From an uncultured Pirellulales bacterium (GTDB lineage: Bacteria > Planctomycetota > Phycisphaerae > Sedimentisphaerales > Anaerohalosphaeraceae), in contig CAZAYB010000007.1 of assembly GCA_964489215.1 (NCBI GenBank), forward strand, positions 1 through 29,403: a stretch of 29,403 nucleotides of DNA, given 5' to 3'. Shown here piece after piece: positions 3,300 to 29,199 of the stretch. The stretch's first letter is position 1, and each line of letters begins with the position of its first letter. A program made the translations under genes and the position numbers. Below the pieces are notes generated by a model. It was given only the letters and a program-made list of their open reading frames with translations. It searched no databases and had not been told where the DNA came from.

Positions 3300-3333
3300 C
3301 AAAAATCCCGGGGTACAAAACTTAATTTACATA

Positions 3334-3900
3334 TTAATTCATTTCAAGTGCGTTTGAGATCTTGTCTACAAGTTCGGAGATATTAAAAGGTTTCTTAACG
3401 AAATCCTCAGCACCTGCTCCTCGAAGATCCTTTATCTCATCCTGATTGACTACGCCGCTTACTATGATAATCTTGGTATTGGCAAAATCAGGGTTTTTCT
3501 TGATAGTATGGCATACCACGTTTCCGTTTACGTCCGGCAGCATATAATCAAGGATAATAAGGTCTGGCCTGAACTGCTGAGTAAGTATGCCTGCGTCATA
3601 TCCGCTGGAGGCTGTTTTTACGTCGAACCTTCCGTCTCTGACAAGAACATCGACCATAAGCTCGAGGATTTCAGTGTCATCATCAACAATCAAAACCTTC
3701 TTTTTACCAGTTGAGATGTTATTGAGGGGAATACTGTTGTCCTTCATGAATTTTACAAGACTTTCCCTTGGTATTCGTCTGAAACGAGAGCCCGGGATCC
3801 TGAAACCATTAAGTCTTCCTGCGTCAAAACACCTGATAATTGTCTGCTGGCTTACATTACAAATGTCCGCCGCTTCTCCTGTAGTAAATAAATCCTTCAT
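3334..3900 (-). CDS. Response regulator with N-terminal excisionase/MerR-like HTH and C-terminal receiver domain
   Basis: 'FTTGEAADICNVSQQTIIRCFDAGRL.GFRIPGSRFRRIP' HTH, then REC with VDDD, phospho-Asp in ILDYMLP, VSG and KKPF. Confidence 0.92.
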   Translation of the reverse strand: MKDLFTTGEAADICNVSQQTIIRCFDAGRLNGFRIPGSRFRRIPRESLVKFMKDNSIPLNNISTGKKKVLIVDDDTEILELMVDVLVRDGRFDVKTASSGYDAGILTQQFRPDLIILDYMLPDVNGNVVCHTIKKNPDFANTKIIIVSGVVNQDEIKDLRGAGAEDFVKKPFNISELVDKISNALEMN

Positions 3901-13210: not shown

Positions 13211-13576
13211 TTAATTGACATGTTTTTTTATTGTTGAAACAAGTTCCATATGGTTAACCGGTTTCTGCATAACACCTGTAAAACCATGTTCCATATGGTC
13301 ATCAGCAGAGCCTATACCGCTTAGAAGAAATACCGGAGTATTATCATCTTCGCTGCGATATTGTTTCATAAACTGTATCCCGGAATCTTCCTCTTCCATC
13401 ATCAGATCGACCATTATAAAGTCCGGCTTACTTTTCCTGCAAAGCTCAAGTCCCTCTTCACAAGAGCCTGCCTCCTTCATTAAAAAACCCGATGCGCTTA
13501 AGATTAGCTCAAGAGCCTCGCGAAAATCCGGGTCATCATCGATTACGATTACTACCTTTTTGCCGTTCTCCATCAC
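13211..13576 (-). CDS. Single-domain response regulator (receiver only)
   Basis: IDDD, phospho-Asp in VDLMM, LSG, QKP; start overlaps the hydF stop (GTGA). Confidence 0.9.
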   Translation of the reverse strand: MMENGKKVVIVIDDDPDFREALELILSASGFLMKEAGSCEEGLELCRKSKPDFIMVDLMMEEEDSGIQFMKQYRSEDDNTPVFLLSGIGSADDHMEHGFTGVMQKPVNHMELVSTIKKHVN

Positions 13577-14820
13577 ATTCTCCTGTTATTTGCAATTCTG
13601 TTTTCCTGGTATACCTGGTGAGCATATCCAAAGGGTTTAAGTGCCCTTTCAAATATCCCAAGTGTATACGCAATTGTCAAGCCATAATTTGTTATAGGTA
13701 CACCCGCCTCTTTTGCAAGCATTATTCTTGAAAGCATTTCACGCCTGTTCCACATGCACGCTCCGCAGTGGATAATAAGTTTATATTTCTGCAAATCCGG
13801 GCTCAAATCATGTCCTCTGCTGTGTTCGAATTCTATCTTCCCGCCTGCATATTGTTTAAGCCATCGCGGTATTTTAACCGTTCCGATGTCGTCTGTTATC
13901 GGATGATGAGTACAGGATTCAGCAATAAGAACCTTGTCACCGCTGGTAAGGTTCTCAATTGCCAAAGCCCCTTTAACCATTTCCGCAAGGTCGGCTTTGT
14001 ATCTTGCAAAAAGAATTGAAAAGCTGGTCATCATAACATCTTCAGGTGTATCAGCTGCAACTTTTAAAAAGGCCTGCGAATCTGTAACAACCAAACCGGG
14101 TTTTTCTTTGAGCAGATTAAATGTTGTGCTAAGTTCACGCTCCTTGCACACCACAGCAACAGAATCAGAATCCAGGATGTCCCGTATCGACTGAACCTGG
14201 GGCAAAATCAATCTGCCCTTCGGTGCCTCCTTGTCTATCGGTACAACCAACACAACCGTCCGGCCCGGCTGTATCAGGTCGCCGAGTATGGAAGGTGTAC
14301 TTGTAAACTCCTTCGGCGTGCTTATGATTATCTGCCTTTTGAGCTCTGCAAATCCTTCTTCTTTTAATGCACTGACGTAACAAAACGGAATGTCTTTGTT
14401 TTTAACCGGTGCAATATTACATTCCTGTTCATCATACAGATCTGTCTTGTTTAGGACCGTAATAACCGGAATACCAAGTTTGTCAAATTCTTCCAGAAGT
14501 TCAGACTCAAAATCACCCCAGTTATTTTTTTCAAAGACCAAAAGCGCCAAGTCGCTCCTTTGAATTACCCCTCTTGTTTTTGCGATCCTTTTCTCCCCCA
14601 ATGCCCCAATGTCATCGATTCCCGCCGTATCCACAAAAAGCACAGGACCAACAGGCAGCAGTTCCATTGGTTTTTCAACAGGGTCGGTCGTCGTGCCGGC
14701 TTGCTCAGAAACTATGGCACTTTGCTGACCTGTTAGTACATTCAAAACAGAACTTTTACCAACGTTTCGTCTGCCGAATATTCCAATATGAAGCCTTAGT
14801 CCCTTAGGTGTTTTTTGCAT
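13573..14820 (-). CDS. hydF: [FeFe]-hydrogenase H-cluster maturation GTPase HydF
   Basis: P-loop GRRNVGKSS, GTTTDPV, DTAG, NKTD; FeS motif CxH..HCGAC; 'TNYG'. Confidence 0.97.
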   Translation of the reverse strand: MQKTPKGLRLHIGIFGRRNVGKSSVLNVLTGQQSAIVSEQAGTTTDPVEKPMELLPVGPVLFVDTAGIDDIGALGEKRIAKTRGVIQRSDLALLVFEKNNWGDFESELLEEFDKLGIPVITVLNKTDLYDEQECNIAPVKNKDIPFCYVSALKEEGFAELKRQIIISTPKEFTSTPSILGDLIQPGRTVVLVVPIDKEAPKGRLILPQVQSIRDILDSDSVAVVCKERELSTTFNLLKEKPGLVVTDSQAFLKVAADTPEDVMMTSFSILFARYKADLAEMVKGALAIENLTSGDKVLIAESCTHHPITDDIGTVKIPRWLKQYAGGKIEFEHSRGHDLSPDLQKYKLIIHCGACMWNRREMLSRIMLAKEAGVPITNYGLTIAYTLGIFERALKPFGYAHQVYQENRIANNRRM

Positions 14821-16237
14821 CTGATTTCCCCCTGTTTACAAAGCCAAGTGAAAGAACCGCCTCACTGCTTGTAAGATGGTCGTATTCCTTTTCGCTGCAC
14901 AACCCCTCTGATGTCAGAATATCCTTTATGGTTCTGTTCTGGTTTGCTGCCTTTTTAGCTGTTTCGGCGCATTTATCATAGCCCAGCTTATTCACAAAAG
15001 CAGTTATAACCGCAGTGGCGTTGTCAACATTTTCTCTGCACCTGTTCTTGTCTGCGCAGATGCCCTCAACAAGACCGCTGCGAAATTTGCTGACTGCATA
15101 TATCAGCTCATCTATCATGCAAAGCAGATTATGAGCGATGCCAGGCAAAAAGGCATTAAGCTCAAGTTGTCCGCTGCACGCTGACAGGGTTATAGCGCTA
15201 TCCCTGCTTATAGCCTGGATAGCTGCCAGACCTGCCATCTCTGCTATCACAGGATTTACCTTGCCCGGCATTATTGACGACCCGGGCTGAACGGCCGGTA
15301 ATCGAATTTCTGCAAACCCTGCCTTTGGTCCGCTCGAAAGCAAACGGATATCGGAAGATATCTTGAAAAGATTAGATGCCAGTGTCTTGAGAAATCCGCT
15401 TACCTCAACTATTTCATCACAGTTTTGAGTTGCGGATATTAAATTTTCCGCCCGGGCCAAAGGAAGATTAGTTATCTGCCGGAGTTTTTCCGATGCGAGA
15501 AATATATATTTTCTGTCTGCGCCTGTCCCCGTACCTACTGCTGTTCCCCCGAGATTTATCACCCTCAATCTTTCCCTGCATTTGGAAAGACGCCACCTGT
15601 CCCTCGAAAACGCTTCTGCATAAGCACCCATCTCCCGCCCAAGGGTGACCAGAACCGCGTCATTGAGCTGAGATCTGCCCAGCTTTACAATGTCCGCAAA
15701 CTCTTTTTCTTTGTGCTGAAACGCATTGACAAGTTCGCTTACAGTCTCCTCAAGTTCGTCGCAGGCAAAGATCGCCGAAACTCTAAGAGCAGTCGGATAA
15801 GTGTCGTTAGTTGACTGATGAAGATTGACATGTCCAAGAGGACTTATTTTTTTATAATCCCCCTTGCTTTCTCCCAGCAGTTCCAGTGCCCGATTGGCGA
15901 TCAGCTCATTGACATACATATTCGTACTTGTACCCGCACCGCCCTGAAGAGCAGCTGGGGCAAATTCACAGGCAAGCTTTCCTGCTGAAAGCTCCCGGCA
16001 AGCCGATACAATAGCCCCGCTTAAATCTTTTGGTATGTAACCAAGTTCACTGTTGGCCTGGCAGCAAGCCTGTTTTACCAGGCCAAACCCCTGCAAAAGT
16101 CTTTGATGAACACGCCCTCCGACAGAACCGAAATTTTCATAAGCACGAAAGCCGCTTATTCCGCACAGAGAGTCTGACCTGATCGACATTTCTCCTAAAG
16201 AATCAACTTCAGTTCTTTCCGGACTTTCGCCGTGCAT
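14804..16237 (-). CDS. aspA: Aspartate ammonia-lyase (fumarase/aspartase superfamily)
   Basis: 'DSLGEM', 'QGGAGTSTNM', 'QSTND.YPT', 'GRSQL.DA', signature 'GSSIMPGKVNP'. ATG 16237 preferred (GGTG 6 nt upstream); GTG 16246 is the alternative. Confidence 0.88.
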   Translation of the reverse strand: MHGESPERTEVDSLGEMSIRSDSLCGISGFRAYENFGSVGGRVHQRLLQGFGLVKQACCQANSELGYIPKDLSGAIVSACRELSAGKLACEFAPAALQGGAGTSTNMYVNELIANRALELLGESKGDYKKISPLGHVNLHQSTNDTYPTALRVSAIFACDELEETVSELVNAFQHKEKEFADIVKLGRSQLNDAVLVTLGREMGAYAEAFSRDRWRLSKCRERLRVINLGGTAVGTGTGADRKYIFLASEKLRQITNLPLARAENLISATQNCDEIVEVSGFLKTLASNLFKISSDIRLLSSGPKAGFAEIRLPAVQPGSSIMPGKVNPVIAEMAGLAAIQAISRDSAITLSACSGQLELNAFLPGIAHNLLCMIDELIYAVSKFRSGLVEGICADKNRCRENVDNATAVITAFVNKLGYDKCAETAKKAANQNRTIKDILTSEGLCSEKEYDHLTSSEAVLSLGFVNRGKSDAKNT

Positions 16238-16331
16238 TAAAATCACCTGTTATTTTAATTTTACATTAACTGTACCCACTGCTTAAGCGCAGAATTATAC
16301 GCAATGGTAAACATGATAAACTATGCATAGC

Positions 16332-16712
16332 TTATATATACTTCTCTATCGCTTTTAACAGAACATTCGGGGTGACCGGCTTTTCGATGAACTCTTTTAC
16401 CGGCAGATTTTCATCATCAGGCTCGAAAGCAAAAGGCAAATTCATCTCCTTACGGATACCGCTTAACATAATAATTGGAATATTGCTTAACTTGCCGTCA
16501 GCTTTTATCCGCTTGGCTGCATCAAAGCCTTCCGTATTAGTCGTCATCATCACATCGAGCAGTATGATGTCAGGCTTATGTTCATGAGCCATTAAAATAC
16601 CTTTCTCTCCGTCAGATGCATTAACTACTTCATAGCCTTTTGCGTCAAGAAGATTGCTGATTGCCTCAACAAACTCCGCATCATCATCGATCATCAAAAC
16701 TTTTTTCGACAC
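16332..16712 (-). CDS. Single-domain response regulator (receiver only)
   Basis: IDDD, phospho-Asp in LDVMM, LSG, EKP; GTG start with GAGG RBS. Confidence 0.92.
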   Translation of the reverse strand: MSKKVLMIDDDAEFVEAISNLLDAKGYEVVNASDGEKGILMAHEHKPDIILLDVMMTTNTEGFDAAKRIKADGKLSNIPIIMLSGIRKEMNLPFAFEPDDENLPVKEFIEKPVTPNVLLKAIEKYI

Positions 16713-16741: not shown

Positions 16742-17806
16742 TTAACATTTTAGCGTATCTTTACATTTAAGCGAATCACCCCTGGAATAATCAACATACC
16801 TGCCTATCGTTCCAGCTGTTTCCTCCAGATTCTGTATCACTTTTTCAGCCTGAACATAACCGAATTTGCCCGGATACAGTTCATAGTTTTGCCTGTATTT
16901 ATCAGGTGTAAAATTGGGCATTATTACATTTGCCCCCGCTTTGAGTGCTTTTTGAGTGGCCTGTTTAGTTCCCAGAACATCAACTGCTGTAGTAGCGGGT
17001 AAATGACAGTTGCCGGTAACTATTCTTGTAACTGCCAGCATCTTTAACGCAAGCCCGATATTGCCGTCCGCAGACTTTGCCATTGCCGTAGCCTCATGCC
17101 GAATAAACACCCCTATGCCTATCATGTCGAACTGCTTGTGATGATAAAACATAGCATCATCTGCAAGCGGTTTTGTGTCATCACCTGCCAGCCCGACAAG
17201 ACTGCCGCAGCCAACCTGATAATTCAGTTCAGATAAAAATCCCAGGCATTCCATTCTTTTTTCATAACTCATGCCCGGATGAAGTTTCCCATAAAGATTC
17301 CTGTCAGTCGTTTCAATTTTGAGCAGATACCGATCAGCCCCTGCCTGTTTCCAGCATTTATAATCTTCCCAGCTTCTTTCACCGACACTTAAAGTAACCG
17401 CCATATCATACTTGCTTTTAATATCATTGATTACCTCTGCCGGAAATTCCGTCGGCATTTCCTTATCTTCACCGCCCTGCAAAACAATCGTCCTTAGTCC
17501 CGCGCTGTATATACGGTCCGCCGCTTCAAGTATCTCCGTTTTGCTCATCCTGTACCGCTTGAGTGATTTATTGTATCTCGATATCCCGCAGTAAGCACAA
17601 CTGTTATTGCAGATGTTCGTAAATTCAACCAGGCCCCGCAGCAGAATCCCGTCTCCGCAATTTGTGCGTCGAATTTTGTCCGCATATTCAAACAAAATAT
17701 CTCGCTCTGAGCCTTCTGTGTCCAGCAGATACCTGACATCATCATAGCCGGGCACTGATGAAGCTTCAAATTGCTCAAAAATAAGTTCTGCTCTGCTTAG
17801 GGCCAT
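16742..17806 (-). CDS. hydE: [FeFe]-hydrogenase maturation radical SAM protein HydE
   Basis: 'RGLVEFTNICNNSCAYCG' CxxxCxxC, 'LQGGED', 'GADRYLLKIET', 'GANVIMPN', 'YELYPGK'. Confidence 0.93.
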   Translation of the reverse strand: MALSRAELIFEQFEASSVPGYDDVRYLLDTEGSERDILFEYADKIRRTNCGDGILLRGLVEFTNICNNSCAYCGISRYNKSLKRYRMSKTEILEAADRIYSAGLRTIVLQGGEDKEMPTEFPAEVINDIKSKYDMAVTLSVGERSWEDYKCWKQAGADRYLLKIETTDRNLYGKLHPGMSYEKRMECLGFLSELNYQVGCGSLVGLAGDDTKPLADDAMFYHHKQFDMIGIGVFIRHEATAMAKSADGNIGLALKMLAVTRIVTGNCHLPATTAVDVLGTKQATQKALKAGANVIMPNFTPDKYRQNYELYPGKFGYVQAEKVIQNLEETAGTIGRYVDYSRGDSLKCKDTLKC

Positions 17807-18307
17807 TTACTTTCCTGCCAGTTCCTGTTTACGAATATCCCTGATAATTTTCACAATTTTTTCCGGGGTAAGATCACCGTAAATTTTCTCGTCTATCATT
17901 ACAACAGGCGCAAGTCCGCACGCACCGAGACATCGTGCCCCTTCAAGACCAAACATTCCGTCTTCTGTTACCTCGCCTACATCTATCTTAAGCTCATCCT
18001 TAAGAGCGTCCATAACCGCCCCTGCCCCTTTAACATAGCAGGCAGTACCCAAACAAACGCTTATCACATGCCTGCCGGGCTTTTCAAGATTGAAATAATG
18101 ATAGAATGTAGCAACTCCCCAGATATGAGCGGTAGGTATATTCATCTGCTCGGAAATAAGGTCCATTACATCACGGGAAAGAAAACCGAAAAGCTGCTGG
18201 GTCTTGTGCAAAACCGCTATCAGATAAGACTCGGTATGCTTTTTATCCTTGACTTGCTCGATATAATTTTTCAATTCTTCAATTTTACTTTGTTCTGTAG
18301 CCTGCAT
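17807..18307 (-). CDS. hydC: NuoE-like [2Fe-2S] subunit of the multimeric [FeFe]-hydrogenase (HydC/HndA)
   Basis: 'LIAVLH..Q...G.L', 'GVATFY..F', 'CLGTACYVKG', 'RCLGACGLAP'. Confidence 0.93.
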   Translation of the reverse strand: MQATEQSKIEELKNYIEQVKDKKHTESYLIAVLHKTQQLFGFLSRDVMDLISEQMNIPTAHIWGVATFYHYFNLEKPGRHVISVCLGTACYVKGAGAVMDALKDELKIDVGEVTEDGMFGLEGARCLGACGLAPVVMIDEKIYGDLTPEKIVKIIRDIRKQELAGK

Positions 18308-18373
18308 TATGTTTCCTTGTCAACTTACAAATTAGAATTTATTGTTTTTCTGAAACTTTTCTGATAAACTCCT

Positions 18374-19885
18374 TTAAAAGTAAAGGTCGCGTTCACCTTT
18401 TTCTGTTCGATTGTAATAATCCATGAAATTCTCAAAAACAGACGGCATCTGCTCCCGGATTTCCGATATCTCTTTTTCTACTACTTTTTCACCTGCCTGC
18501 CGTGTCTGCTCGCTTGCAAAATCATCAAGCCATTCCCGGAAGGTTATCACCGCGTTTAACTTGCAGAACTTTCCTTCTGTACCATCCTTAAGCAGTCCCA
18601 TTATACATTCACCGGTTCTTCCGCATCTGTAACCTGCGGTGCAAAACGACGTAATATACCCGTCATTAGCCAAATCGCCAATTAGCTCATCGAGACTTCT
18701 TGTATCCCCAAGCATAAACTGCTGTTTTTCTCCGTGCTGTCTGCTGTCGTGTTCGGCATAACCGCCTATCCCGATACAGCTGGAGGCATCGGTCTGGGTG
18801 CACCCAAGTTTGATAAATTTATCACGAATATCTTTACTTTCCCTTGCTGTTATAATCATACCGGTATGCGGTATCGCAAGACGAATTACAGTTACAAGCC
18901 TGCGAAAATCATCATCGCTGACATGATTGGTATTATCTGCCGTAAAAGGCGTGTTATGTGCAGGCTCAAGCCTGGGAAATGATACGGTATGCGGGCCGAT
19001 TGAAAATTTCTTCTCCAGATCTAAAGCATGGCTCACAAGTGCCATAACTTCATACCGCCAGTCACCAAGACCGAAAAGGGCTCCTATGCCGACATCGTCA
19101 ACACCTGCTTCCATCGCCCGGTGCATCGAGTAAAGCCGCCAAAGGTAATTGCTTTTGATAGTATTTGAGGGATGAACCATGCTGTAAAGTTCTCTGTCGT
19201 AAGTTTCCTGGAAAACCTGGAAAGTCCCTATGCCGACTTCATGCAGTTTTTTAAGCTCATCAATCTGAAGTGGTGCTGCATTAACATTAACCCTTCGTAT
19301 CGAGCCGTAACCTTTTCTGGTTTTGCACTTTACCTTATATATGGCACTAATTGTCTCTGCCATATAATCAACACCGCTCGATGGATGTTCACCGTAAACT
19401 ACGATCAGCCTTTTATGACCTATATCACCTGCCAGCACTTTAGTTTCTTCGATTACTTCATCAACTTCAAGCCGGCGCCTTCCTGCCTGGTTGTTATCAC
19501 ATCTGAATCCGCAGTAAAGGCAGTTGTTCACGCACAGATTGCTAAGATAAAGCGGAGCGAAAGTTACTATACGGTTATCATAAACCTTTTTCTTGATCTT
19601 TAATGCAGCTTCTTCCATCTCATGCAGCATTTGCGGATCGGTAACATTCAAAAGCGCCGCCGTTTCAAAAAGATCGAGCGTTTCTATACTCATCGCTTTT
19701 GCAATGATATCTCTTACTTGCCTGGGACCCGGCTCTTTTTGCAAAGCCAGCCCGGACCGTATAGCTTCATCATCAATAAAGCTTTTGCCGTCTTTGTCAA
19801 GATACCTGAGAATCTGGTCCTCGATTATCCGCTGTGCCGACCATTTATCGCTGCACCTGATATTATTTTCAGTTATTGTCCCCAT
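18374..19885 (-). CDS. hydG: [FeFe]-hydrogenase maturation radical SAM protein HydG
   Basis: 'FAPLYLSNLCVNNCLYCGF', 'GHKRL....GEHP', 'FQETY', 'GPHTVSFPRL', C-terminal auxiliary Cys motif CX5CX19C. ATG 19885 preferred over GTG 19894. Confidence 0.96.
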   Translation of the reverse strand: MGTITENNIRCSDKWSAQRIIEDQILRYLDKDGKSFIDDEAIRSGLALQKEPGPRQVRDIIAKAMSIETLDLFETAALLNVTDPQMLHEMEEAALKIKKKVYDNRIVTFAPLYLSNLCVNNCLYCGFRCDNNQAGRRRLEVDEVIEETKVLAGDIGHKRLIVVYGEHPSSGVDYMAETISAIYKVKCKTRKGYGSIRRVNVNAAPLQIDELKKLHEVGIGTFQVFQETYDRELYSMVHPSNTIKSNYLWRLYSMHRAMEAGVDDVGIGALFGLGDWRYEVMALVSHALDLEKKFSIGPHTVSFPRLEPAHNTPFTADNTNHVSDDDFRRLVTVIRLAIPHTGMIITARESKDIRDKFIKLGCTQTDASSCIGIGGYAEHDSRQHGEKQQFMLGDTRSLDELIGDLANDGYITSFCTAGYRCGRTGECIMGLLKDGTEGKFCKLNAVITFREWLDDFASEQTRQAGEKVVEKEISEIREQMPSVFENFMDYYNRTEKGERDLYF

Positions 19886-19901
19886 AATATACACTCACAA
19901 T

Positions 19902-21680
19902 TTAAACTGTGGTTTTATCAACCTTGGATATTATACCAGCAGGGGCCTTAGCCTTGTAATGCGTATGCAGAAGTTTATGACTTTTCTCGCTCAACGGCCT
20001 GCCAAGATATTCCTTGTAAAGACGCTGGATGTCAGGGTTCTCATGACTTCTGCGAATCGTCTTGCCCCTGTCGCTGCTGTAAAGAGCCTCTGCTCTTTTA
20101 CGCAGGCTGTCCTCATCAAGCGGAATGGTGTTAGCGGTAGCATAAGGCTGACCTCCGCCGCCTATACATCCGCCGGGACAACCCATTATCTCAACAAAAT
20201 GGTACCTTTCGGGGTCTTCACGCACTATGGTGAGCAGTTTATGGGCGTTACCAAGGCCATGGGCAACCGCCACCCGAATCTCCTGGCCGTCCATAACAAG
20301 ACTGCCCTCTTTTATTCCCTTAAGTCCGCGTATATTTTCAACCTCGATATCTATCAGGGTTTCTCCTGTGTAGAGTTCATAAGCGGTCCTTATAGCCGCT
20401 TCCATTACACCACCGGTAACCCCGAATATCGTTCCCGCTCCGGAGCTCATTCCAAGCGGTGTGTCAGGTTTCTCTGGTTCTATATTGACAAAGTCTATTC
20501 CCGCAGATTTAATCATCCATGCTATCTCACGGGTAGTAACAACAATATCTGTTGCAGCTGTGCCGTTTATCTGAAGCTCCGGCCTGGCTGCCTCGTACTT
20601 CTTTGCGGTACAGCACATGACCGCCGAGCTGATTATCTTTTCAGGATCAACGTTGATCTTTTCCGCAAAGTAAGTCTTAATCAAAGAGCTCGCCATAGAC
20701 ATCGGACTCTTACATGTAGAAATGTTAGGTATAAGGTCAGGATAAAACTGTTCCATGCACTTCATCCAGGCACTGGAACAGGATGTTATCATCGGAAGCG
20801 GTCCTTTGTTCTGGATTCTTTCAAGAAACTCGCTGCCTTCTTCCATTATCGTAAGATCAGCCGCGAACTGAGTATCGAACACATAATCGAAACCAAGTTT
20901 TCTAAGCGATGCGAAAAGCTCACCTTCAAGATTCTTACCCGCCTCGAGATTAAAAGCTTCCCCGATAGCTGCCCTTACAGAAGGCGCAATCTGGGCTACC
21001 GTGATATAATCCTTATCGTTAAGCCTTTCAAAAAGCTCCTGGGTATAACTTTTCTCTACAAAACTCGCCGTCGGACATACATTAATGCACTGACCGCAGG
21101 TAGTGCATACGCTTTCTGAAAACGGCATATTATAAGCGGGCATTACAACTGTCTTAAAGCCTCTGTGTGCCTGGCCAAGAGCAGTTACCTTCTGGACCTC
21201 AGAACACATACGAACGCATCGCCCGCAAAGAATACATTTATCAGGATTACGAACTACAGAAGGAGAAGAAAGATCCTCCTCGTAACTCTTACGCTCACCT
21301 TCAAAATGTCGCTTGCGAATACCCATCGCGTAAGCAAGCCTTTGAAGCTCACAGTTGCCGTCACGCTCACAAGTATGACAGTCCTGTGGATGGTTATCAA
21401 GCAAAAGCTCTACAATATCACGTCTTGCTCTGCGGATTCCAGCGGTATTGGTATGAATCTTCATACCGTCACTGACTGGAAACGCACAACTGGCGACATA
21501 ATTTTTTGAACCTTCAACTTCTACTATGCAAACCCTGCAGGCACCTTCTATGGAAAGCTTGGGATGATAGCAAAGCCGGGGTATATGAAAACCAAGTTTA
21601 TCAGCGGCCTGCATGATTGTCTGGCCGGAATCTACTTTATATTCCTTATTATTGATATGTATCGAAATCTGTTCACTCAT
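19902..21680 (-). CDS. hydA: [FeFe]-hydrogenase catalytic subunit HydA/HndD (group A3-type domain architecture), variant H-cluster motifs
   Basis: [2Fe-2S] 'LCYH..GACRVC..SC', His-ligated 'HPQDCHTC..C', two [4Fe-4S] 'CILCGRC..C' and 'CTTCGQCINVCP', H-domain P1 TSCSSAW, P2 MCCTAKKYE, P3 EIMGCPGGCIGGGGQP, fused small-subunit tail 'SHENP'. Confidence 0.96.
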   Translation of the reverse strand: MSEQISIHINNKEYKVDSGQTIMQAADKLGFHIPRLCYHPKLSIEGACRVCIVEVEGSKNYVASCAFPVSDGMKIHTNTAGIRRARRDIVELLLDNHPQDCHTCERDGNCELQRLAYAMGIRKRHFEGERKSYEEDLSSPSVVRNPDKCILCGRCVRMCSEVQKVTALGQAHRGFKTVVMPAYNMPFSESVCTTCGQCINVCPTASFVEKSYTQELFERLNDKDYITVAQIAPSVRAAIGEAFNLEAGKNLEGELFASLRKLGFDYVFDTQFAADLTIMEEGSEFLERIQNKGPLPMITSCSSAWMKCMEQFYPDLIPNISTCKSPMSMASSLIKTYFAEKINVDPEKIISSAVMCCTAKKYEAARPELQINGTAATDIVVTTREIAWMIKSAGIDFVNIEPEKPDTPLGMSSGAGTIFGVTGGVMEAAIRTAYELYTGETLIDIEVENIRGLKGIKEGSLVMDGQEIRVAVAHGLGNAHKLLTIVREDPERYHFVEIMGCPGGCIGGGGQPYATANTIPLDEDSLRKRAEALYSSDRGKTIRRSHENPDIQRLYKEYLGRPLSEKSHKLLHTHYKAKAPAGIISKVDKTTV

Positions 21681-21690
21681 TTCTCTTTCC

Positions 21691-23481
21691 TTACGATTTA
21701 GTTATGGCATCGAACTTACATGTGTTATAACACATTCCGCACTTAATACATTTATCCTGATCTATCACGTGCATTTCCTTACGCTGACCGCTTATGGCAT
21801 CAACCGGACATACACGCTTACAAGCTCCGCAACCGACACACTTATCTATAATAAGATAAGTAGCAAGCTGCTTACACACACCTGCCCTGCACTTCTTATC
21901 ACGAATATGTTCCTCATATTCCTGGCGGAAGTTCTTGATAGTGCTTAAAACAGGATTGGGAGCACTTTGACCAAGCCCGCAAAGAGAAGACTTGATGATC
22001 ATTTCTCCAAGCCTTTCAAGCTTTTCAATGTCACCTTCCTTGCCTTTACCCTCTGTCAGTCTGGTAAGTATCTCAAGCATACGTTTGGTACCCTCCCGGC
22101 ATGGAGTGCACTTTCCGCAGGATTCATTCTGGGTAAACTCAAGGAAAAACTTGGCAATATCAACCATACATGAATCCTCGTCTATGACTATCATACCGCC
22201 GGAACCCATTATTGAACCTGCCTGTGCTAAATTTTCATAATCGATAGGCGTATCGATATATTCCTCAGGCAGACAGCCTCCGGAAGGTCCGCCCGTCTGG
22301 ATAGCCTTTAATTTCTTGCCTTCCAGCAGACCGCCGCCTATATCATATACTATTTCTCGAAGGGTAGTGCCCATGGGAACCTCGATAAGACCGGTGTTAA
22401 CCACCTTGCCTGCCAGTGCGAAAACCTTAGTGCCCTTGCTCTTGGCGGTTCCGACAGTACTGAACCATTTGCCGCCGTCCAGAATAACCACAGGGATATT
22501 GGACCATGTCTCGACATTGTTTATCAAAGTAGGCTTGCCGAACAAACCCTTCACCGAAGGATAAGGAGGCCTGGGCCTTGGCATACCCCTTGCCCCCTCT
22601 ATCGAATGAATCAAAGCCGTTTCTTCTCCGCATACAAAAGCACCTGCACCAAGACGAATCTCGAGATCGAAATTAAAATCACTGCCGAGAATATTTTCTC
22701 CAAGGAAACCGTTGTCGCGGGCATCTTTAATCGCCTTTTCTATTCGGCGAATGGCAAGCGGATATTCCGCACGAATATAAACTATACCTTTGCTTGCACC
22801 GATAGCATATCCGCCTATTATCATCCCTTCCACTATCGTATGAGGATCACCCTCAATAGCACTTCTGTCCATAAAAGCACCCGGGTCACCTTCGTCTGCG
22901 TTGCATATTACATATTTTTCTTCGGATTCTTCCGCAGCGGTAAACTGCCATTTAAGACCGGTCGGAAAACCTGCTCCCCCTCGGCCCCTCAGACCAGATT
23001 CCTTTACCATATTGACTACATCATCACTGCTCATATCCGTCAAAACCTTTGCAAGGGCCTCATAACCCCTGACAGAAAGATAATCGTCTATGCTCTCAGG
23101 GTCGATTATCCCGCAGTTACGTAAAGCTATCCGCATCTGCTTCTTAAAGAAATCACTGTCACCGAAAATCCTGAAGAACCTGTTAAACAGATGATCCTCC
23201 TGGACTATCAGCCGTGATACTTCCCTGCCGTTGACAAGATGTTCAGAAACGATTTCCTTCATATCATCCACACCGACATTGCCGTATATCGTATAACCGG
23301 GATTGACCACGACTACTGGCCCCTTGTCACACATACCAAGACAGCCGCTGAGACTGATCTTTACCTTGTCGTCAAGCGAATGTTCCTTAACCTGCTCGTC
23401 AAGAACTTTCCTCAGGTCATGGGTACCTTTTTGTATACAGCCGGTACCATCACACATTGTTACTATCAATTCATCCGACAC
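21691..23481 (-). CDS. hydB: NuoF-like FMN/NADH-binding subunit HydB/HndC
   Basis: N-terminal [2Fe-2S] 'CDGTGC..GCLGMC', 'GLRGRGGAGFPTG', 'NADEGDPGAFMDR', 'GAGAFVCGEETAL', 'GGPSGGC', 'ESCGKCTPCREG', C-terminal 2x[4Fe-4S]; GTG start. Confidence 0.96.
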   Translation of the reverse strand: MSDELIVTMCDGTGCIQKGTHDLRKVLDEQVKEHSLDDKVKISLSGCLGMCDKGPVVVVNPGYTIYGNVGVDDMKEIVSEHLVNGREVSRLIVQEDHLFNRFFRIFGDSDFFKKQMRIALRNCGIIDPESIDDYLSVRGYEALAKVLTDMSSDDVVNMVKESGLRGRGGAGFPTGLKWQFTAAEESEEKYVICNADEGDPGAFMDRSAIEGDPHTIVEGMIIGGYAIGASKGIVYIRAEYPLAIRRIEKAIKDARDNGFLGENILGSDFNFDLEIRLGAGAFVCGEETALIHSIEGARGMPRPRPPYPSVKGLFGKPTLINNVETWSNIPVVILDGGKWFSTVGTAKSKGTKVFALAGKVVNTGLIEVPMGTTLREIVYDIGGGLLEGKKLKAIQTGGPSGGCLPEEYIDTPIDYENLAQAGSIMGSGGMIVIDEDSCMVDIAKFFLEFTQNESCGKCTPCREGTKRMLEILTRLTEGKGKEGDIEKLERLGEMIIKSSLCGLGQSAPNPVLSTIKNFRQEYEEHIRDKKCRAGVCKQLATYLIIDKCVGCGACKRVCPVDAISGQRKEMHVIDQDKCIKCGMCYNTCKFDAITKS

Positions 23482-23532
23482 TTTCTGTTTCCCTTCTGTA
23501 AAAACTGAGTAAAATTCAACTCCGCTGATTTT

Positions 23533-23889
23533 TTATATCACCCATTCTTTTATTACTTCACCTTTTTTAATGTGCCTTTCAATTATTTCCTGGGCACGCT
23601 CAACCGTAACCTTGCCGTACCTGACAGGATTTTTGCCCGTCTCGACAACTTCCACAGTAGGCTCAAGATTACATCTGCCCGCACAGCCTTTCTGACTTAA
23701 ATAAACATCCGTCAGGCCGCCTGTACCTACCGCGTTCTTGAAAACTTCCATTATCTCCTTAGACCCAGCCGCAATTTCGCAGGTGGCCATTCCAACAAAA
23801 ACCCTCTTCGTCGAAAGATAACCCTTGCCTATAATCCTGCTAACTGCCTCGGCTCGTTTCTTCTTGACTATTTCAAGCGGTGTCAGCAT
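23533..23889 (-). CDS. hydD: Thioredoxin-like [2Fe-2S] ferredoxin subunit HydD/HndB
   Basis: 'VFVGMATCEIAAG', 'GCAGRCNLEPTVEV', 'Y..V....A.EI...H'. Confidence 0.88.
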   Translation of the reverse strand: MLTPLEIVKKKRAEAVSRIIGKGYLSTKRVFVGMATCEIAAGSKEIMEVFKNAVGTGGLTDVYLSQKGCAGRCNLEPTVEVVETGKNPVRYGKVTVERAQEIIERHIKKGEVIKEWVI

Positions 23890-25723
23890 TTTTAATACCC
23901 CTTTCTATCTGAAATAAAAATGAATTACCTTTTTCCCTCGGACATGCCCATATCTCTCCGCCATGAGCCTGAACGAGATTCTTCGTTATATAAAGCCCAA
24001 GCCCGTTGCCTTTGACTTTCTTTGTGTCGCTTGTCTTTAATCTTGAAAATTTCTTGAAAAGCTTCTTGCTTTGCTCAGGGTCAATGGGAACACCGTCATT
24101 ATAAACCTCTATTTCTATCTTCCCGTCTAAAAATCGGCCGTTTATAATAACCCTGCCGTGTTCATTACCATATTTTATCGCATTGCTGATAAGATTGTTC
24201 GCAACTATCTGCATAAGATCAGAATCAGCAACCGCTTCCATATCATCCTCAAGATTGTTCTCGATTGTAATATCCTTCTTTACAGCAAGTGTCTCCAAAG
24301 AGCTGACGGTAATATCAAAAACATCCTTTTTAAGAGATATCTCACTTTTATGTACCTTAAGCTGACCCCTTTCAATTCTGCCCAGGTTCAAAAACTTCTT
24401 AACCGTTGCCGCAAGATAATCAAGGTTCCTTGCCACAGAATCGATAGCTTTTCGCTGCTTGAAGTTCACCATACCCAAAAAACCGTCGCGGACAGCATAA
24501 GCGTTCATAATCGCAGAGCCCAGTATGCCGTTAAGCTCATGGGCAACAAAACTTATCAGTTCAACATAACTTTGATTTGAGGTCTCAAGCTGCTCATTAG
24601 ATATCTTAAGGCTTTGCTCACGTTCCTTTATCCGCTCTGCCATGTGATTAAAAGAACTGGCAAGCCGTTTAAGTTCGTTTATCTTAAAATCATCACGGAC
24701 CTTGTGCTCAAGATCACCCTGTGAATACTTCCTGGTGCCGTTGAGCATCTCTATAATTGGCCTGGTAATCGTACCGGTAAGGACCATCGAAAGTACCGCT
24801 GCCAAAACTGTGGCACCTGCAACTAAAACCGAAAATATTAAAAAAATATTCCTGGCCATATCGTTAAAAGGCTTTTCCAGAATACCCACATAAAGGATCC
24901 CGATAACCTCTCCGTGTATGTCGCGTATGGGTTCATAAGCCGTTTTGTACCAGTCGTTTACCACAAAGGCTCTGTCCAGCCACATCTGGCCCTGCTCGGC
25001 GACTTTTTCATAAACTTCCGCTGAAATTCTCGTCCCCACTGCCCGTTTGTTCTTGTCGGTAAGGACATTTGTAGCTATTCTCACATCATCCTGAAATATC
25101 GTCACCGTACCGTAAGGCTTGCCGTAATACATTTCATTGCCAAAAACCAGCGTACGGATCCTGTCGACCAGAGAATGGTCCTTATTGATTATCCTGCCGC
25201 CGTATAACACCCTTACAACTTTACCGTTCTTAACTTCCGGTATAGCGTACTCCTTGCTCATAGCACTTCTGAGAACCGCTTTATTAGTGGGAATTGCCCT
25301 GGGCGTATATTTAATTTCTATCTGAACCCTTGAGCTGAGATCATTATTCATCGACTCAAGTTCCTGTGCTTCAATTATCCTCGTCCCGCCCACCGCTTCT
25401 TTGCTGACAACCGCCTTTTGGACAATATCACTTTTGCTGCTTTGGGCCTTATCGGGACCTATTACATATAAATAATCAAGCTGGGTTTTTTCCCGAAGAA
25501 CATCAATATCACCAGCGCCGGGCAATATTCTCATTATCTGACCAATTCGGTCTATCTCAGTCCGATATACTGTTCGCGCAGCCTTAAGATTGCGAGCGAC
25601 AGTCTCCTCAGCCCGTTCAATAATATCTTTTTTAATGATATAATACCCAAGGCCCGCGATTGACAGACTCATCACAAGGATTACCACTAAAAAATAAAGC
25701 GTTATTCGTTGTCTTATAGACAT
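23873..25723 (-). CDS. Membrane sensor histidine kinase (TM - Cache - TM - HAMP - HisKA - HATPase_c)
   Basis: Two TMs; Cache-type 'TIFQDDVRIATNV..RAVGT..YEPIRD..G.VIGILYVG'; HAMP 'ITRPI..NELKRLASSFNHM'; H-box AHELNGIL; N-box NLISNAIKY; G2 GNGLGL. Confidence 0.92.
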   Translation of the reverse strand: MSIRQRITLYFLVVILVMSLSIAGLGYYIIKKDIIERAEETVARNLKAARTVYRTEIDRIGQIMRILPGAGDIDVLREKTQLDYLYVIGPDKAQSSKSDIVQKAVVSKEAVGGTRIIEAQELESMNNDLSSRVQIEIKYTPRAIPTNKAVLRSAMSKEYAIPEVKNGKVVRVLYGGRIINKDHSLVDRIRTLVFGNEMYYGKPYGTVTIFQDDVRIATNVLTDKNKRAVGTRISAEVYEKVAEQGQMWLDRAFVVNDWYKTAYEPIRDIHGEVIGILYVGILEKPFNDMARNIFLIFSVLVAGATVLAAVLSMVLTGTITRPIIEMLNGTRKYSQGDLEHKVRDDFKINELKRLASSFNHMAERIKEREQSLKISNEQLETSNQSYVELISFVAHELNGILGSAIMNAYAVRDGFLGMVNFKQRKAIDSVARNLDYLAATVKKFLNLGRIERGQLKVHKSEISLKKDVFDITVSSLETLAVKKDITIENNLEDDMEAVADSDLMQIVANNLISNAIKYGNEHGRVIINGRFLDGKIEIEVYNDGVPIDPEQSKKLFKKFSRLKTSDTKKVKGNGLGLYITKNLVQAHGGEIWACPREKGNSFLFQIERGIKNADTA

Positions 25724-26353
25724 TTAGCTTTCCCTGGCCTTTTCAGTTGCATTCACAAAATATATCAGATTTTCAAGCTCTGCCTCGACGTTGATATTGT
25801 TTACTACAACATCCCAATCATTTCTAAGCCGAATCGGAGCAAAATTCATAAATCCTTTAACTCCGGAATTAACCATTATTTCAAAAACCTGCTGGGCTGC
25901 GTAATCCGGAACACTTATTATGCCCAGTGAAATTCCATTTTCCTTTATAAACTCACCAAGTTTTTCAAGTCCGTAAACTGGAATAGGCACTTCTTTGCTG
26001 AATTTACCAGGGTCAATGTCAAAACCTGCAACTATTCGCATACCGCTTTTCTCAAAACCATGATAATTCATCAAAGCCTTGCCTATATTTCCTACCCCAA
26101 CCAGCACAAAATCCTTAACCTCATCTTTGCCGAGAACTTTGTTGAGCTGTTCTATCAGTTCATCAATCTTGTAACCCCCGCGTCGATTGCCTGTTATTCC
26201 AAAAAGAGAAAAGTCTTTTCTAACCTGTGAAGCGGTAACCCCCGCTGCATCTGCAAGGTTATCGGAAAAAACACGAACAAAGTTAAGGCTTTTTAGCCGA
26301 TTTACTGCATTTTTGTACTTTGAAAGCCGATTTATCACACTTTTGTTAGGCAT
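25724..26353 (-). CDS. rex: Redox-sensing (NADH/NAD+) transcriptional repressor Rex
   Basis: 'RLSKY', 'S..LA...GVTASQVRKDFS..G..G..GGY' wHTH; Rossmann GVGNIG..L.NY; 'AGFD'; 'NFAP'. Confidence 0.95.
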   Translation of the reverse strand: MPNKSVINRLSKYKNAVNRLKSLNFVRVFSDNLADAAGVTASQVRKDFSLFGITGNRRGGYKIDELIEQLNKVLGKDEVKDFVLVGVGNIGKALMNYHGFEKSGMRIVAGFDIDPGKFSKEVPIPVYGLEKLGEFIKENGISLGIISVPDYAAQQVFEIMVNSGVKGFMNFAPIRLRNDWDVVVNNINVEAELENLIYFVNATEKARES

Positions 26354-26482: not shown

Positions 26483-26500
26483 TTGTGAATTTTTTCACAT
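26483..26500. promoter_or_regulatory. Rex operator
   Basis: TTGTGAA-TTTT-TTCACAT, 13/14 match to the known Rex consensus TTGTGAA-N4-TTCACAA, located upstream of rex. Confidence 0.8.
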
Positions 26501-26697: not shown

Positions 26698-29199
26698 ATG
26701 AGTTGTGATATTAACAAGATTGGAAAGTTTTTCATATTACCCGCCCTGGCCTGTTGGGTCTTGCTGGTTTACCCCTGTTTTGCCCATGGCAAAGAGGCAG
26801 ACCCGCATAATCAGAAAATAATAATCGGAGGAGACTATAATTACCCGCCCTATGAATTTCTTGATAAAAACGGCGAGCCGACTGGCTACAATGTTGAGCT
26901 TACAAAAGCTATCGGCGATGTCATGGGAATGAAAGTCGATATTCAGCTTGGACCATGGGGGCAGATCAGGGACAAACTCGAAAAAAAACAAATCAACGCT
27001 ATCCACGGTATGTTCCATTCTTCTGAAAGAGACAAGGTTGTCGATTTCACCCCTGCTCATACCATTATTTACCACGCCGTTTTCGTAAGAAAAAACTCCC
27101 TCAAGATAACTAAAGAAACCCAGCTGCGCAACAAGGATATAATCGTTATGGATGGCGATATAATGCACGACTACACTATTGAAAAAAATCTTTCGCAAAA
27201 TGTCATCACCGTACCGAACCAGGCCGATGCTCTCAGGCTCCTGTCCAGTGGAAAATATGATTGTGCGCTGATTGCAAAACTGCCGGGCCTGTACTGGATA
27301 AATCAGCTCAAACTTCAAAACCTCACAACCACAGGTCCTCTTATCAGACAGGCAAAGTATTGCTATGCCGTCCCGCAAGGCGAATTGGATTTGCAGAATA
27401 TGTTATCAACCGGACTGGCAATATTAAAAGAAAACGGAAGATATAATGAAATTTATGACAAATGGCTCGGTGTTTATGACGACAGAAAGCTTGAAGTAAA
27501 ATATGCCGGTATCATTGTATTAGCAATACTGGTTCCCGGGTTACTGATTATTGGTGCGGTTTGCCTGTGGTCTTTCACGCTGAAAAAACAGGTAAACCAG
27601 CAAACCGCAAAACTGCAGAAGGAGATACAGACAAGAGCAGCCGTGCAAACTGAGCTCGATGAACAGCAAAGGTATCTCCAGAAAATATTTAATAATGTCA
27701 ATGTCGGGATAATACTTATAGACCCGGTTACACATACCATTGAGGATATTAATTCAGCTGCAGTTAAAAAAATAGGACTCCCCAAAAAGGATATTGTCGG
27801 AAAGGTCTGTCACAATTTCATATGTCCCGCTCAGATGGAAAACTGCCCGATTACAGACCAGAAAAAGGACATAGATAATTCTGAAAAAACCCTTATTACC
27901 GCCAATAAATTAAAAGAAATGCCGATTCTCAAAACCGTGACAAAAGTAAATCTGAAAGGCAAATGCTACCTTCTCGAGTCTTTTGTTGATATCTCCCTCC
28001 AGAAGAGCGCGCAGAATAAAACCGCTAAAGAGACCGCTAAATTATGGGCCATGATATCAGGAATGGAAGATGCGGTTATCTTCGCCGATGACCATGATAA
28101 GCTGATAGAGGTAAACCCGGCCGCCGAGAAATTCCTGAGGGTACCAAGGGATGTACTGCTTAACAGGACTCTTTGGGATCTCAGTTCCATTAAAGGAATC
28201 AAGGAAATAAAGGAAATAGTTAAAAATTTCAAAAATCAACAAAAGCCTCACCCTGTCTTTGTCTCTGAATCAAACCAGGACAAAAGATATGAAATTAGAA
28301 TTCAACCCATAATGAACTTTGATCAGTATAACGGCGTACTGCTTAACATTGTAGATGTTACAAAACTGGTAACTGCCACCGAACAGGCAGAAAAAATAAA
28401 TCATCAGATCGAGGAGATGAATGTTGAATTGCAGACTTCGATGGAAAAGGCAAAGCTCATGGCAAAGGAAGCATATATGGCAAGTCAGGCAAAAAGCGAA
28501 TTCCTTGCCAATATGAGCCATGAAATAAGAACACCATTAAATTCCATAATCGGTTTTTCTGAGCTCCTTACAGAAGAAATTCAGGACCCCCAGCAAAAAC
28601 AGATGATAGATGCTGTACAAAACTCAGGTAACCATTTACTTCAGCTTATTAACGATATACTCGATTTCTCGAAAATAGAAGCGGGAAAACTTGAATTTGA
28701 CATTGCCGAATTCAATATAAAAAACTGTCTTGATGAAATTTCAGGAATTTGTAAGCATTCGGCAACTATAAAGGACATTGATTTTAAAATCGATGCCGCT
28801 GACAATCTGCCCCAACACCTGTTAAGCGACGTCGTAAGGCTAAAGCAATGCCTCTTAAACCTTGTCAATAATGCGATTAAATTTACAGACCACGGAAGTG
28901 TAACCTTAAAGGTAACAGCTGAAAAAATCGATTCTGACCAGATCATAAGGTTCGATGTAATTGATACCGGAATTGGAATTGAAAAGGAAAAGATTGATAC
29001 CATTTTTGAATCTTTCTCACAGGCAGACAACAGTACAACAAGAAAATATGGCGGTACAGGATTGGGGCTGGCTATTACAAAAAAACTGGTCGAATGTCTA
29101 AACGGCAAAATCACAGTGGACAGTCAGCCGAATAAAGGTTCCGTTTTCTCAATTTTTCTGCCCGTAAAACAGCAAGCTGTTTCAAATACATCTGCTTAA
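26698..29199 (+). CDS. Sensor histidine kinase: signal/TM - periplasmic amino-acid-binding-like (SBP family 3) domain - TM - PAS - PAS - HisKA - HATPase_c; no receiver
   Basis: 'GGDYNYPPYEF...G.PTG.NVEL', 'ENGRYNEIYDKW', TM, PAS 'NSAAVKKIG' and 'VNPAAEKFL', H-box 'KSEFLANMSHEIRTPLN', 'NLVNNAIKFT', 'DTGIGI', 'FSQAD.STTRKYGGTGLGLAI'. Confidence 0.93.
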   Translation: MSCDINKIGKFFILPALACWVLLVYPCFAHGKEADPHNQKIIIGGDYNYPPYEFLDKNGEPTGYNVELTKAIGDVMGMKVDIQLGPWGQIRDKLEKKQINAIHGMFHSSERDKVVDFTPAHTIIYHAVFVRKNSLKITKETQLRNKDIIVMDGDIMHDYTIEKNLSQNVITVPNQADALRLLSSGKYDCALIAKLPGLYWINQLKLQNLTTTGPLIRQAKYCYAVPQGELDLQNMLSTGLAILKENGRYNEIYDKWLGVYDDRKLEVKYAGIIVLAILVPGLLIIGAVCLWSFTLKKQVNQQTAKLQKEIQTRAAVQTELDEQQRYLQKIFNNVNVGIILIDPVTHTIEDINSAAVKKIGLPKKDIVGKVCHNFICPAQMENCPITDQKKDIDNSEKTLITANKLKEMPILKTVTKVNLKGKCYLLESFVDISLQKSAQNKTAKETAKLWAMISGMEDAVIFADDHDKLIEVNPAAEKFLRVPRDVLLNRTLWDLSSIKGIKEIKEIVKNFKNQQKPHPVFVSESNQDKRYEIRIQPIMNFDQYNGVLLNIVDVTKLVTATEQAEKINHQIEEMNVELQTSMEKAKLMAKEAYMASQAKSEFLANMSHEIRTPLNSIIGFSELLTEEIQDPQQKQMIDAVQNSGNHLLQLINDILDFSKIEAGKLEFDIAEFNIKNCLDEISGICKHSATIKDIDFKIDAADNLPQHLLSDVVRLKQCLLNLVNNAIKFTDHGSVTLKVTAEKIDSDQIIRFDVIDTGIGIEKEKIDTIFESFSQADNSTTRKYGGTGLGLAITKKLVECLNGKITVDSQPNKGSVFSIFLPVKQQAVSNTSA

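Follow-up and report, generated by a model that had tools for sequence, protein, structure and literature searches.

An [FeFe] hydrogenase subfamily with a co-inherited set of H-cluster pocket substitutions, including serine at a cubane ligand position, from Planctomycetota and other anaerobes

Contig CAZAYB010000007.1 of assembly GCA_964489215.1, from an uncultured Pirellulales bacterium (Anaerohalosphaeraceae in the GTDB lineage), was analysed over a stretch of 29,403 bp, here called the window. It contains on the minus strand, at positions 19902 to 21680, an open reading frame (ORF) of 592 amino acid residues, hydA, which encodes an M3-type [FeFe] hydrogenase catalytic subunit. Judged by its sequence, HydA is a catalytic subunit of the Bfu/HydABC type (group A3 of HydDB, "A6" of NCBIfam) by all testable criteria except the strict consensus of the H-cluster motifs P1 and P2. 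Its departures from that consensus belong to a set of six substitutions, Cys300 to Ser, Pro301 to Ser or Ala, Gly302 to Ala, Gln325 to Met, Pro354 to Cys and Ala498 to Gly (numbering of CpI, the enzyme of Clostridium pasteurianum), which alignments identify as co-inherited in a whole subfamily. The coupled Pro354Cys/Ala498Gly/Met325 signature, together with the loss of Pro301, appears to be undescribed. On balance, the best overall explanation is a functional Bfu-type HydA whose cubane would be held by three cysteines and one serine oxygen within a co-evolved second sphere.

According to Pfam, the domains of HydA are arranged in the order 2Fe-2S, His-ligated 4Fe-4S, two ferredoxin-type 4Fe-4S, H-domain and fused small-subunit domain, with matches to PF02906 (1.3e-88) and PF02256 (4.6e-25) as well as PF13510 and PF10588. 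The protein scored 843 bits against NCBIfam NF040763, "NADH-dependent [FeFe] hydrogenase, group A6" (cut-off 765), and 496 bits against TIGR02512 (cut-off 406). Using HMMER, the nearest HydA proteins of solved structure were HydA1 of Thermoanaerobacter kivui (2.6e-178), HydA1 of Acetobacterium woodii (2.7e-164) and CpI (about 1e-136), and the alignments to all three ran from P1 through P2 without gaps. Residue numbers in the window HydA are those of CpI plus 2. An AlphaFold2 model had a predicted local distance difference test score (pLDDT) of 80-95 in the H-domain and below 50 in the F-domain, which inflates the global root-mean-square deviation; a fold search with this model gave 8a6t_A (T. 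kivui HydA) as best match and also found A. woodii HydA.

The motif P1 (L1) is located at 20766 to 20786 of the minus strand and reads TSCSSAW (ACA TCC TGT TCC AGT GCC TGG). Here Cys301 is the proton-relay Cys299 of CpI, Ser302 stands at the ligand Cys300, Ser303 at Pro301 and Ala304 at Gly302. Compared with the consensus TSCCPxW, in which the second Cys is a cubane ligand, HydA has Ser at the ligand site and lacks the Pro. P2 (L2), at 20592 to 20618 of the same strand, reads MCCTAKKYE (ATG TGC TGT ACC GCA AAG AAG TAC GAG); it keeps the Met, the ligand Cys, the Lys and the Glu of the consensus MPCxxKxxE and has Cys for Pro, with Cys356 at Pro354, Cys357 as ligand Cys355, and Lys360 and Glu363 as Lys358 and Glu361. 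P3 (L3), EIMGCPGGCIGGGGQ, at 20148 to 20192 (minus strand), contains Cys501 and Cys505 as the ligands Cys499 and Cys503, and Gly500 at Ala498; the consensus ExMxCxxGCxxGGGQP is present as EIMGCPGGCIGGGGQP, its variable position 498 being Gly. In the segment NISTCKSPM (20700 to 20726, minus strand), Ser321 is the proton-relay Ser319, Cys323 stands at Ala321 and Met327 at Gln325, and Ser328 directly after it (CpI 326) is a further diagnostic position.

Other functional residues of the H-domain are unchanged. The segment MEEGSEFLER (20817 to 20846, minus strand) supplies Glu281, Glu284 and Arg288, which are Glu279, Glu282 and Arg286 of the proton pathway in CpI, and with Cys301 and Ser321 the pathway is complete. 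Met353 and Met497 of CpI are retained. The tripeptide APS at 20979 to 20987 (minus strand), equal to Ala230-Pro231-Ser232 of the CpI pocket with its hydrogen bond to CN-, is invariant in alignment A1, and no ligand of the F-domain clusters varies among 35 aligned relatives. A preliminary description of this DNA, made from the letters without database searches, had reported the two motifs, a gap-free residue mapping onto CpI, and the loss of both conserved prolines with an additional Cys beside Cys355. The codons read exactly as it gave them, every residue assignment proved right in the alignments to CpI, T. kivui and A. woodii, and Ser303 and Cys356 were confirmed. Its list of altered residues (Cys300Ser, Pro301Ser, Gln325Met and Pro354Cys) was likewise correct as far as it went, but it overlooked the tightest coupling of all, that between Pro354Cys and Ala498Gly.

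Like A. woodii HydA1 (HydABC(D); PDB 7Q4V/7Q4W/8A5E), the window protein is an M3-type HydA of a Bfu-type complex with Ser at the Cys300 site (TSCSPGW in A. woodii), an aliphatic residue before TS and Cys at 321. However, A. woodii HydA1 keeps Pro301, Gly302, Gln325, Pro354 (MPC) and Ala498, where the window has Ser, Ala, Met, Cys and Gly; of the A. woodii-type set (Ser300 in TSCSPGW, MPC, MAC) it shares Ser300, with Pro301, Pro354 and Ala498 all replaced. T. kivui HydA1 (PDB 8A6T/8BEW) is the best match in both sequence and fold and has the same domains and HydB/HydC partners, but its motifs are fully canonical (TSCCPSW, MPC, KSPQ). CpI resembles the window protein in fold, F-domain, proton pathway and those pocket residues not listed above, whereas it is monomeric and ferredoxin-dependent, with canonical motifs and none of the six pocket substitutions.

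The Cys300Ser part of the oddity is established knowledge. In the A. woodii HydABC complex the ligand Cys (Cys299 in T. kivui) is Ser301, and the enzyme is active with a normal Fourier-transform infrared (FTIR) signature of its H-cluster (Katsyv et al. 2023, PMC10021017). TSCSPGW was noted in Melainabacteria (Di Rienzi et al. 2013), and Zheng and Huang (2024, PMC11406978) describe Ser as common at the fifth P1 position of BfuA. As the active A. woodii enzyme has this Ser, activity does not strictly depend on the P1 consensus. At the equivalent site of Chlamydomonas reinhardtii HydA1 (CrHydA1) the variants C115S, C115A and C115D lose the cubane, which Kertess et al. (2017, PMC5855289) found surprising, given that about 20% of sequences have Ser at this site. 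The preliminary description would have counted it as a refutation if such variants were widespread in characterised enzymes with normal spectra; in part, namely for Cys300Ser, this is the case, on the strength of A. woodii and of about 20% of sequences.

The occurrence of the motifs was surveyed in a collection of 5.8 billion proteins. TSCSS[AS]W together with MCCTAKK[YF]E was found in 120 of the best 120 matches (77-100% identity), mostly from metagenome-assembled genomes (MAGs) of Phycisphaerae and Sedimentisphaerales. Among 150 representatives of clusters at 50% identity, a single further cluster had MCC (P0122, 57% identity, with TSCSAAW), and about 20 had TSCSP[GA]W with MPC. A search seeded with P0122 added members from Armatimonadota, Margulisiibacteriota, Auribacterota and Bacillota. 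When one genome per GTDB species was scanned with degenerate DNA for MCCTAKKxE, at least 119 loci were found, and carriers of MCCTAKK number at least 119 species genomes in more than 10 phyla. Among the matches listed, MCC carriers include Planctomycetota, Omnitrophota, Armatimonadota, Elusimicrobiota, Spirochaetota and Fibrobacterota, and further Raymondbacteria, Vulcanimicrobiota, Synergistia and Desulfobulbus, and TSCSSAW stands alongside MCC in 103 of these loci. The complete Omnitrophota genome of Ca. Velamenicoccus archaeovorus LiM (L061) has MCCTAKK as well.

The subfamily is monophyletic in crude neighbour-joining (NJ) trees, and MCC was not found in any PDB chain. With at least 119 species genomes carrying it, the distinct subfamily proposed in the preliminary description is borne out. 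The strings TSCSSAW, TSCSAAW and MCCTAKK were not found in the literature searched, and a literature search on Pro354/Ala498 variants and "group A6" returned nothing specific.

The pocket positions were compared in an alignment of 331 H-domains, consisting of 194 MCC proteins and 137 others. Met325 is present in all 194 MCC proteins, and so is Gly498 (P3 reading ExMGC), which was seen in only 6 of the 137 other H-domains. This tight coupling of 354 and 498 indicates a packing or backbone relationship between the two positions. Its sole exception came from a locus of a Sediminispirochaetaceae MAG (L111), where MCC is combined with Ala498 (TSCSAAW, MCC and EVMACRGGC). Position 300 is Ser in 192 and Cys in 2 of the 194 proteins, and with the 115 loci added it is only Ser or Cys in more than 300 subfamily sequences from more than 10 phyla; position 301 varies between Ser, Ala and Pro. 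In the near outgroup, position 300 is Ser in 15 and Cys in 84 sequences. Codon use was compared over 115 GTDB loci: Ser300 is encoded by all four TCN codons, Cys354 by TGC and TGT, and Gly498 by all four GGN codons, and this synonymous diversity across species shows purifying selection at the three positions. Cys354, Gly498 and Met325 are kept, with synonymous codon turnover, over about 50% sequence divergence and more than 10 phyla.

Positions 300 and 354 vary independently of each other. On the MCC background, P1 is CSSA in 151 proteins and CSAA in 40 proteins; CSPG (TSCSPGW) occurs with MCC in P0323, L047 and L078, and canonical CCPT (TSCCPTW) occurs with MCC in P0294 and P0295, which share 79% identity, and in L020. 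Each of these intermediate types is represented by three independent lineages, and CSPG with MPC is common. The state of P1 toggles inside the MCC clade of the NJ tree, and apparent reversions to MPC/MAC in that tree (P0305, P0308) retain Ser300. Loss of Pro301 is almost confined to the MCC background, and within the subfamily it occurs only with MCC/MGC; a strict joint loss of Pro301 and Pro354 as a general rule was rejected, as either Pro is lost alone in other groups. Further diagnostic positions, recognised by sequence comparison, are Gln269, Ser326, Trp386, the insertion Tyr511-Ala512 after GGGGQP and the C-terminus. The Cys at 321 (Cys323), shared with A. woodii, was considered as a ligand compensating for Ser300 and was discarded, since canonical TSCCP enzymes, too, most often have Cys at 321; within the subfamily 321 is Cys, Ala, Thr or Val.

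In the explanation we favour, the [4Fe-4S]H cubane would be held by Cys355, Cys499, Cys503 and the oxygen of Ser300, as modelled for A. woodii. Cys354, Gly498, Ser301 and Met325 would be a co-evolved second sphere, in which two rigid prolines and an alanine beside three of the four ligands have given way to smaller residues capable of hydrogen bonding. Such a sphere may stabilise or redox-tune a Ser-ligated cubane while supplying no new ligand. The enzyme would couple NADH and reduced ferredoxin to H2 in fermentation, probably under the control of Rex. This ligation is preferred because Cys354 coexists with an intact Cys300-Pro301, because Ser300 is widespread and functional without Cys354, because the reversions keep Ser300, and because position 300 holds only the ligand-competent residues Ser and Cys while 301 drifts.

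Several points weigh against this explanation. C115S of CrHydA1 loses the cubane (PMC5855289); Ser ligation therefore needs a permissive scaffold, to which an additional adjacent thiolate would be an obvious alternative. Ser, Thr and Ala at 354 coexist with Ala498 in other groups, and the pairing of Cys354 with Gly498 thus looks stricter than packing alone. The evidence for a Ser ligand in A. woodii is a cryo-electron microscopy model of medium resolution. The NJ trees carry no support values and serve for a coarse topology, not for the order of the substitutions. RNA evidence for expression of hydA was not found in public runs, where coverage was flat and metagenome-like.

The nearest competitor, which we hold possible but doubtful, makes Cys356 (CpI 354) the fourth thiolate, with the cubane on the tandem Cys356-Cys357 and on Cys501 and Cys505, and Ser302 demoted to a hydrogen-bond donor; a redox-dependent exchange between Ser oxygen and Cys sulfur may possibly be added. 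This is close to the proposal of the preliminary description that the new Cys re-routes ligation; changes in potential, catalytic bias or protection against O2 or sulfide, which it also proposed, would be possible consequences of the altered pocket. A tandem ligand of this kind has a counterpart in respiratory complex I, whose cluster N2 has among its ligands two cysteines adjacent in sequence. Within the subfamily the new Cys never varies and is under purifying selection, its strict pairing with Gly498 could allow the backbone geometry needed, both prolines flanking ligands are gone so that two loops are freed, and the C115S variant of CrHydA1 is unable to hold a cubane. Against it, MCC beside an intact Cys300-Pro301 (P0294, P0295, L020) would mean five candidate ligands, Ser300 without Cys354 is common and one such enzyme is active, no non-ligand residue was ever seen at Ser300 in more than 300 sequences, and the apparent MPC/MAC reversions (P0305, P0308) hold Ser300. 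In structural terms, residues 353 and 355 both face the cofactor, so 354 would be expected to point elsewhere. Re-routed ligation as an obligatory compensation for the lost Cys300 is weakened by the combinations TSCCPTW with MCC, TSCSPGW with MCC and TSCSP with MPC, and by the restriction of position 300 to Ser and Cys.

We regard as rather unlikely a related proposal, that ligation by Cys354-Cys355 replaces Cys300 and frees Ser300 and the P1 loop, now without its proline, for a redox-linked exchange of Ser oxygen and Cys sulfur at [4Fe-4S]H or for a more mobile Cys299 loop, for example in self-protection like that of CbA5H. In that O2-protected enzyme, Cys299 binds the distal Fe in the Hinact state. 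It is speculation that the loss of Pro301 and the aliphatic residue at 296 are compatible with a more mobile TSCCP-type loop as in CbA5H, which was only a distant match to HydA (30jk/9rkm).

It is also unlikely that the substitutions are an accident of history, nearly neutral and epistatically locked, passed on in a successful operon that moves horizontally, with the properties of the H-cluster not meaningfully changed. Such an account would fit the A. woodii enzyme, where the Ser ligand has no apparent effect on FTIR, the drift of position 301 between Ser, Ala and Pro, and the toggling of P1 within the clade. Gln269, Trp386, the Tyr511-Ala512 insertion and the C-terminus are diagnostic by comparison of sequences only, and the signature may just mark ancestry. 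It sits badly with Cys354, Gly498 and Met325, which stay invariant over about 50% divergence and more than 10 phyla while synonymous sites turn over. Moreover, PMC10147833 lists Pro354 as one of the residues lining the cavity of the H-cluster in CpI, and the bias of CrHydA1 shifts when the ligand sphere of its cubane is changed (PMC5855289).

A non-catalytic or degenerate protein, either a sensory hydrogenase or one with incomplete binding of the H-cluster, is very improbable. One canonical ligand Cys is missing, and C115S of CrHydA1 is inactive. However, HydA retains the proton-relay Cys299 and every Glu, Ser and Arg of the pathway, and Pfam found in it neither a PAS domain nor any other sensory domain, which sets it apart from the sensory groups C and D; its score also exceeds the threshold that NCBIfam sets for the catalytic family. 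The genes hydE, hydF and hydG are interleaved with the structural genes in an arrangement conserved in an isolate, and A. woodii provides a precedent for activity with Ser. That the motif codons are an artefact of assembly or sequencing has a negligible chance and was ruled out, as contigs spanning 20150 to 20820 from four independent public metagenome runs had zero differences at the motif codons and hundreds of homologues share the motifs. Other runs holding hydA sequence were labelled marine sediment metagenome. The source is an anaerobe of marine sediment, probably a planctomycete of the Phycisphaerae/Sedimentisphaerales, to which the closest named homologues of HydA belong.

The genes around hydA were assigned from their sequences, all on the minus strand. 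Upstream of hydA, hydB (21691 to 23481) encodes a BfuB/HndC-like protein of 596 amino acids with an N-terminal thioredoxin-like 2Fe-2S domain, a flavin mononucleotide (FMN)/NAD(H) domain and a C-terminal 2x[4Fe-4S] domain (Pfam); its best match, extending over the full length, is A. woodii HydB (1.1e-255), and it also matches HydB of T. kivui and Thermotoga maritima. A small HndB/BfuD-like protein of 118 amino acids (23533 to 23889), thioredoxin-like with a [2Fe-2S] cluster and a weak match to PF01257, resembles the 2Fe-2S domain at the N-terminus of Bfu B subunits as well as the 2Fe-2S ferredoxin of the Aquifex aeolicus type. On the other side, hydC (17807 to 18307) encodes a NuoE/BfuC-like 2Fe-2S protein of 166 amino acids (PF01257, 2e-49; T. 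kivui HydC, 1.2e-39). The H-cluster maturases are represented by the radical S-adenosylmethionine (SAM) proteins HydG (18374 to 19894; TIGR03955, 447 bits, cut-off 312) and HydE (16742 to 17806; TIGR03956, 319 bits, cut-off 255) and by the GTPase HydF (13573 to 14820; TIGR03918, 562 bits, cut-off 326).

In the direction of the minus strand, the order is rex, kinase, the 118-residue 2Fe-2S protein, hydB, hydA, hydG, hydC, hydE, receiver, an aspartate ammonia-lyase homologue, hydF and receiver. The order is unusual in that the maturase genes are interleaved with the structural genes, hydG parting hydC from hydA and hydB (16742 to 23889). The cultured planctomycete Anaerobaca lacustris (L120) has the genes from rex up to the response regulator in this order too, with the 118-residue gene, the kinase and the receiver all at equivalent places. 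The proton pathway, the other cluster ligands, the Bfu-type HydB and HydC and the hydE, hydF and hydG genes in the cluster point to an active enzyme of the HydABC type. With maturases of its own at the locus, the HydABC(D)-type system is complete, which argues strongly that the predicted HydA binds an H-cluster.

Regulatory genes stand at the head of and within the cluster, on the minus strand. The gene rex (25724 to 26353), for the redox-sensing (NADH/NAD+) repressor, scored 230 bits against NF003996 (cut-off 138), and a palindrome like a Rex box, TTGTGAATTTTTTCACAT, lies at 26483 to 26500 (plus strand) with one mismatch to TTGTGAAN4TTCACAA, about 130 bp upstream of rex in a divergent intergenic region. 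Four other Rex-box matches in the window had three mismatches each, which is at chance level. Since rex heads the cluster and the Rex-box-like palindrome stands upstream of it, the cluster is probably controlled in response to NADH/NAD+. A full-length Cache/HAMP sensor histidine kinase (23873 to 25723; Pfam) follows, overlapping the start of the 118-residue gene by 17 nt, and two receiver-only response regulators (16332 to 16712 and 13211 to 13576) lie within the hyd/maturase cluster. A kinase and a receiver occupy equivalent places in A. lacustris, which suggests a dedicated two-component control of the hydrogenase.

The arrangement of genes matches the order B-A-C described for "Sub-type III" BfuABC and called previously unreported, with Anaerohalosphaera lusitana and Ca. 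Velamenicoccus archaeovorus as relatives (Zheng and Huang 2024, PMC11406978). The window has the order D-like, B, A, (G), C, and the likeness to Sub-type III is one of gene order, to which the MCCTAKK of V. archaeovorus may be added. The P2 consensus in PMC11406978 is xxMPCxAKK, and its text is silent on Pro354Cys, Ala498Gly and the loss of Pro301. The gene order of A. woodii is unlike that of the window. The tetrameric Hnd of Desulfovibrio fructosovorans (HndABCD) is similar in its layout of four subunits, NuoE-like, small 2Fe-2S, NuoF-like and HydA; it differs in gene order, and the window has interleaved maturase genes.

Some other features of the window and of the homologues were seen. The gene of the aspartate ammonia-lyase/class II fumarase family (14804 to 16246, minus strand; NF008909, 560 bits, cut-off 510), between a receiver gene and hydF, has no counterpart at this place in A. 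lacustris (L120). A 508-residue ORF antisense to hydA (19593 to 21119, plus strand) has a well-supported gene opposite its whole length, and the simplest reading is that it is a shadow ORF. Two-component genes are dense for one window: a histidine kinase with an HDOD domain and an adjoining helix-turn-helix (HTH) receiver regulator are found at 1077 to 3900 (minus strand), and a histidine kinase with solute-binding and PAS domains is found at 26698 to 29199 (plus strand), divergent from rex. MCC-type HydA proteins from Armatimonadota and Margulisiibacteriota (P0122, P0271-P0304) are about 750-780 amino acids long and have a C-terminal fusion to a thioredoxin-like 2Fe-2S domain (HydC-like, PF01257), and one such operon (L121) consists of a small protein, hydB and the fused hydA, with no separate hydC. 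The top-scoring cluster representative, P0121, is a predicted protein of 4122 amino acids with seven tandem H-domains, each having TSCCA[SG]W, MPCTVKK and EIMMC; it could be a giant multi-hydrogenase or an artefact of assembly or gene calling.

The tuning of the [4Fe-4S]H subcluster by its protein is a standing question of hydrogenase chemistry. An engineered Cys to Ser change kills the algal enzyme, yet Ser is present in a fifth of natural sequences and in an active bifurcating enzyme. The subfamily described here would be a second natural solution, with the strictly co-varying neighbours Cys354, Gly498 and Met325 and without Pro301, and the combinations CCPT with MCC, CSPG with MCC and CSPG with MPC offer a ready-made natural mutational series. 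If the reading with tandem cysteine ligands were true, hundreds of uncultured anaerobes would have a naturally re-wired H-cluster site. Screens that require both TSCCPxW and MPCxxKxxE, such as the motif filter of PMC6085437, would drop the entire clade. The subfamily is large, a natural test case for the flexibility of H-cluster binding, and with Anaerobaca lacustris as a cultured carrier the question is directly testable. Being widespread in poorly studied anaerobes of the Planctomycetota, Omnitrophota, Armatimonadota and other phyla, these enzymes probably account for a real share of fermentative H2 production in the environment.

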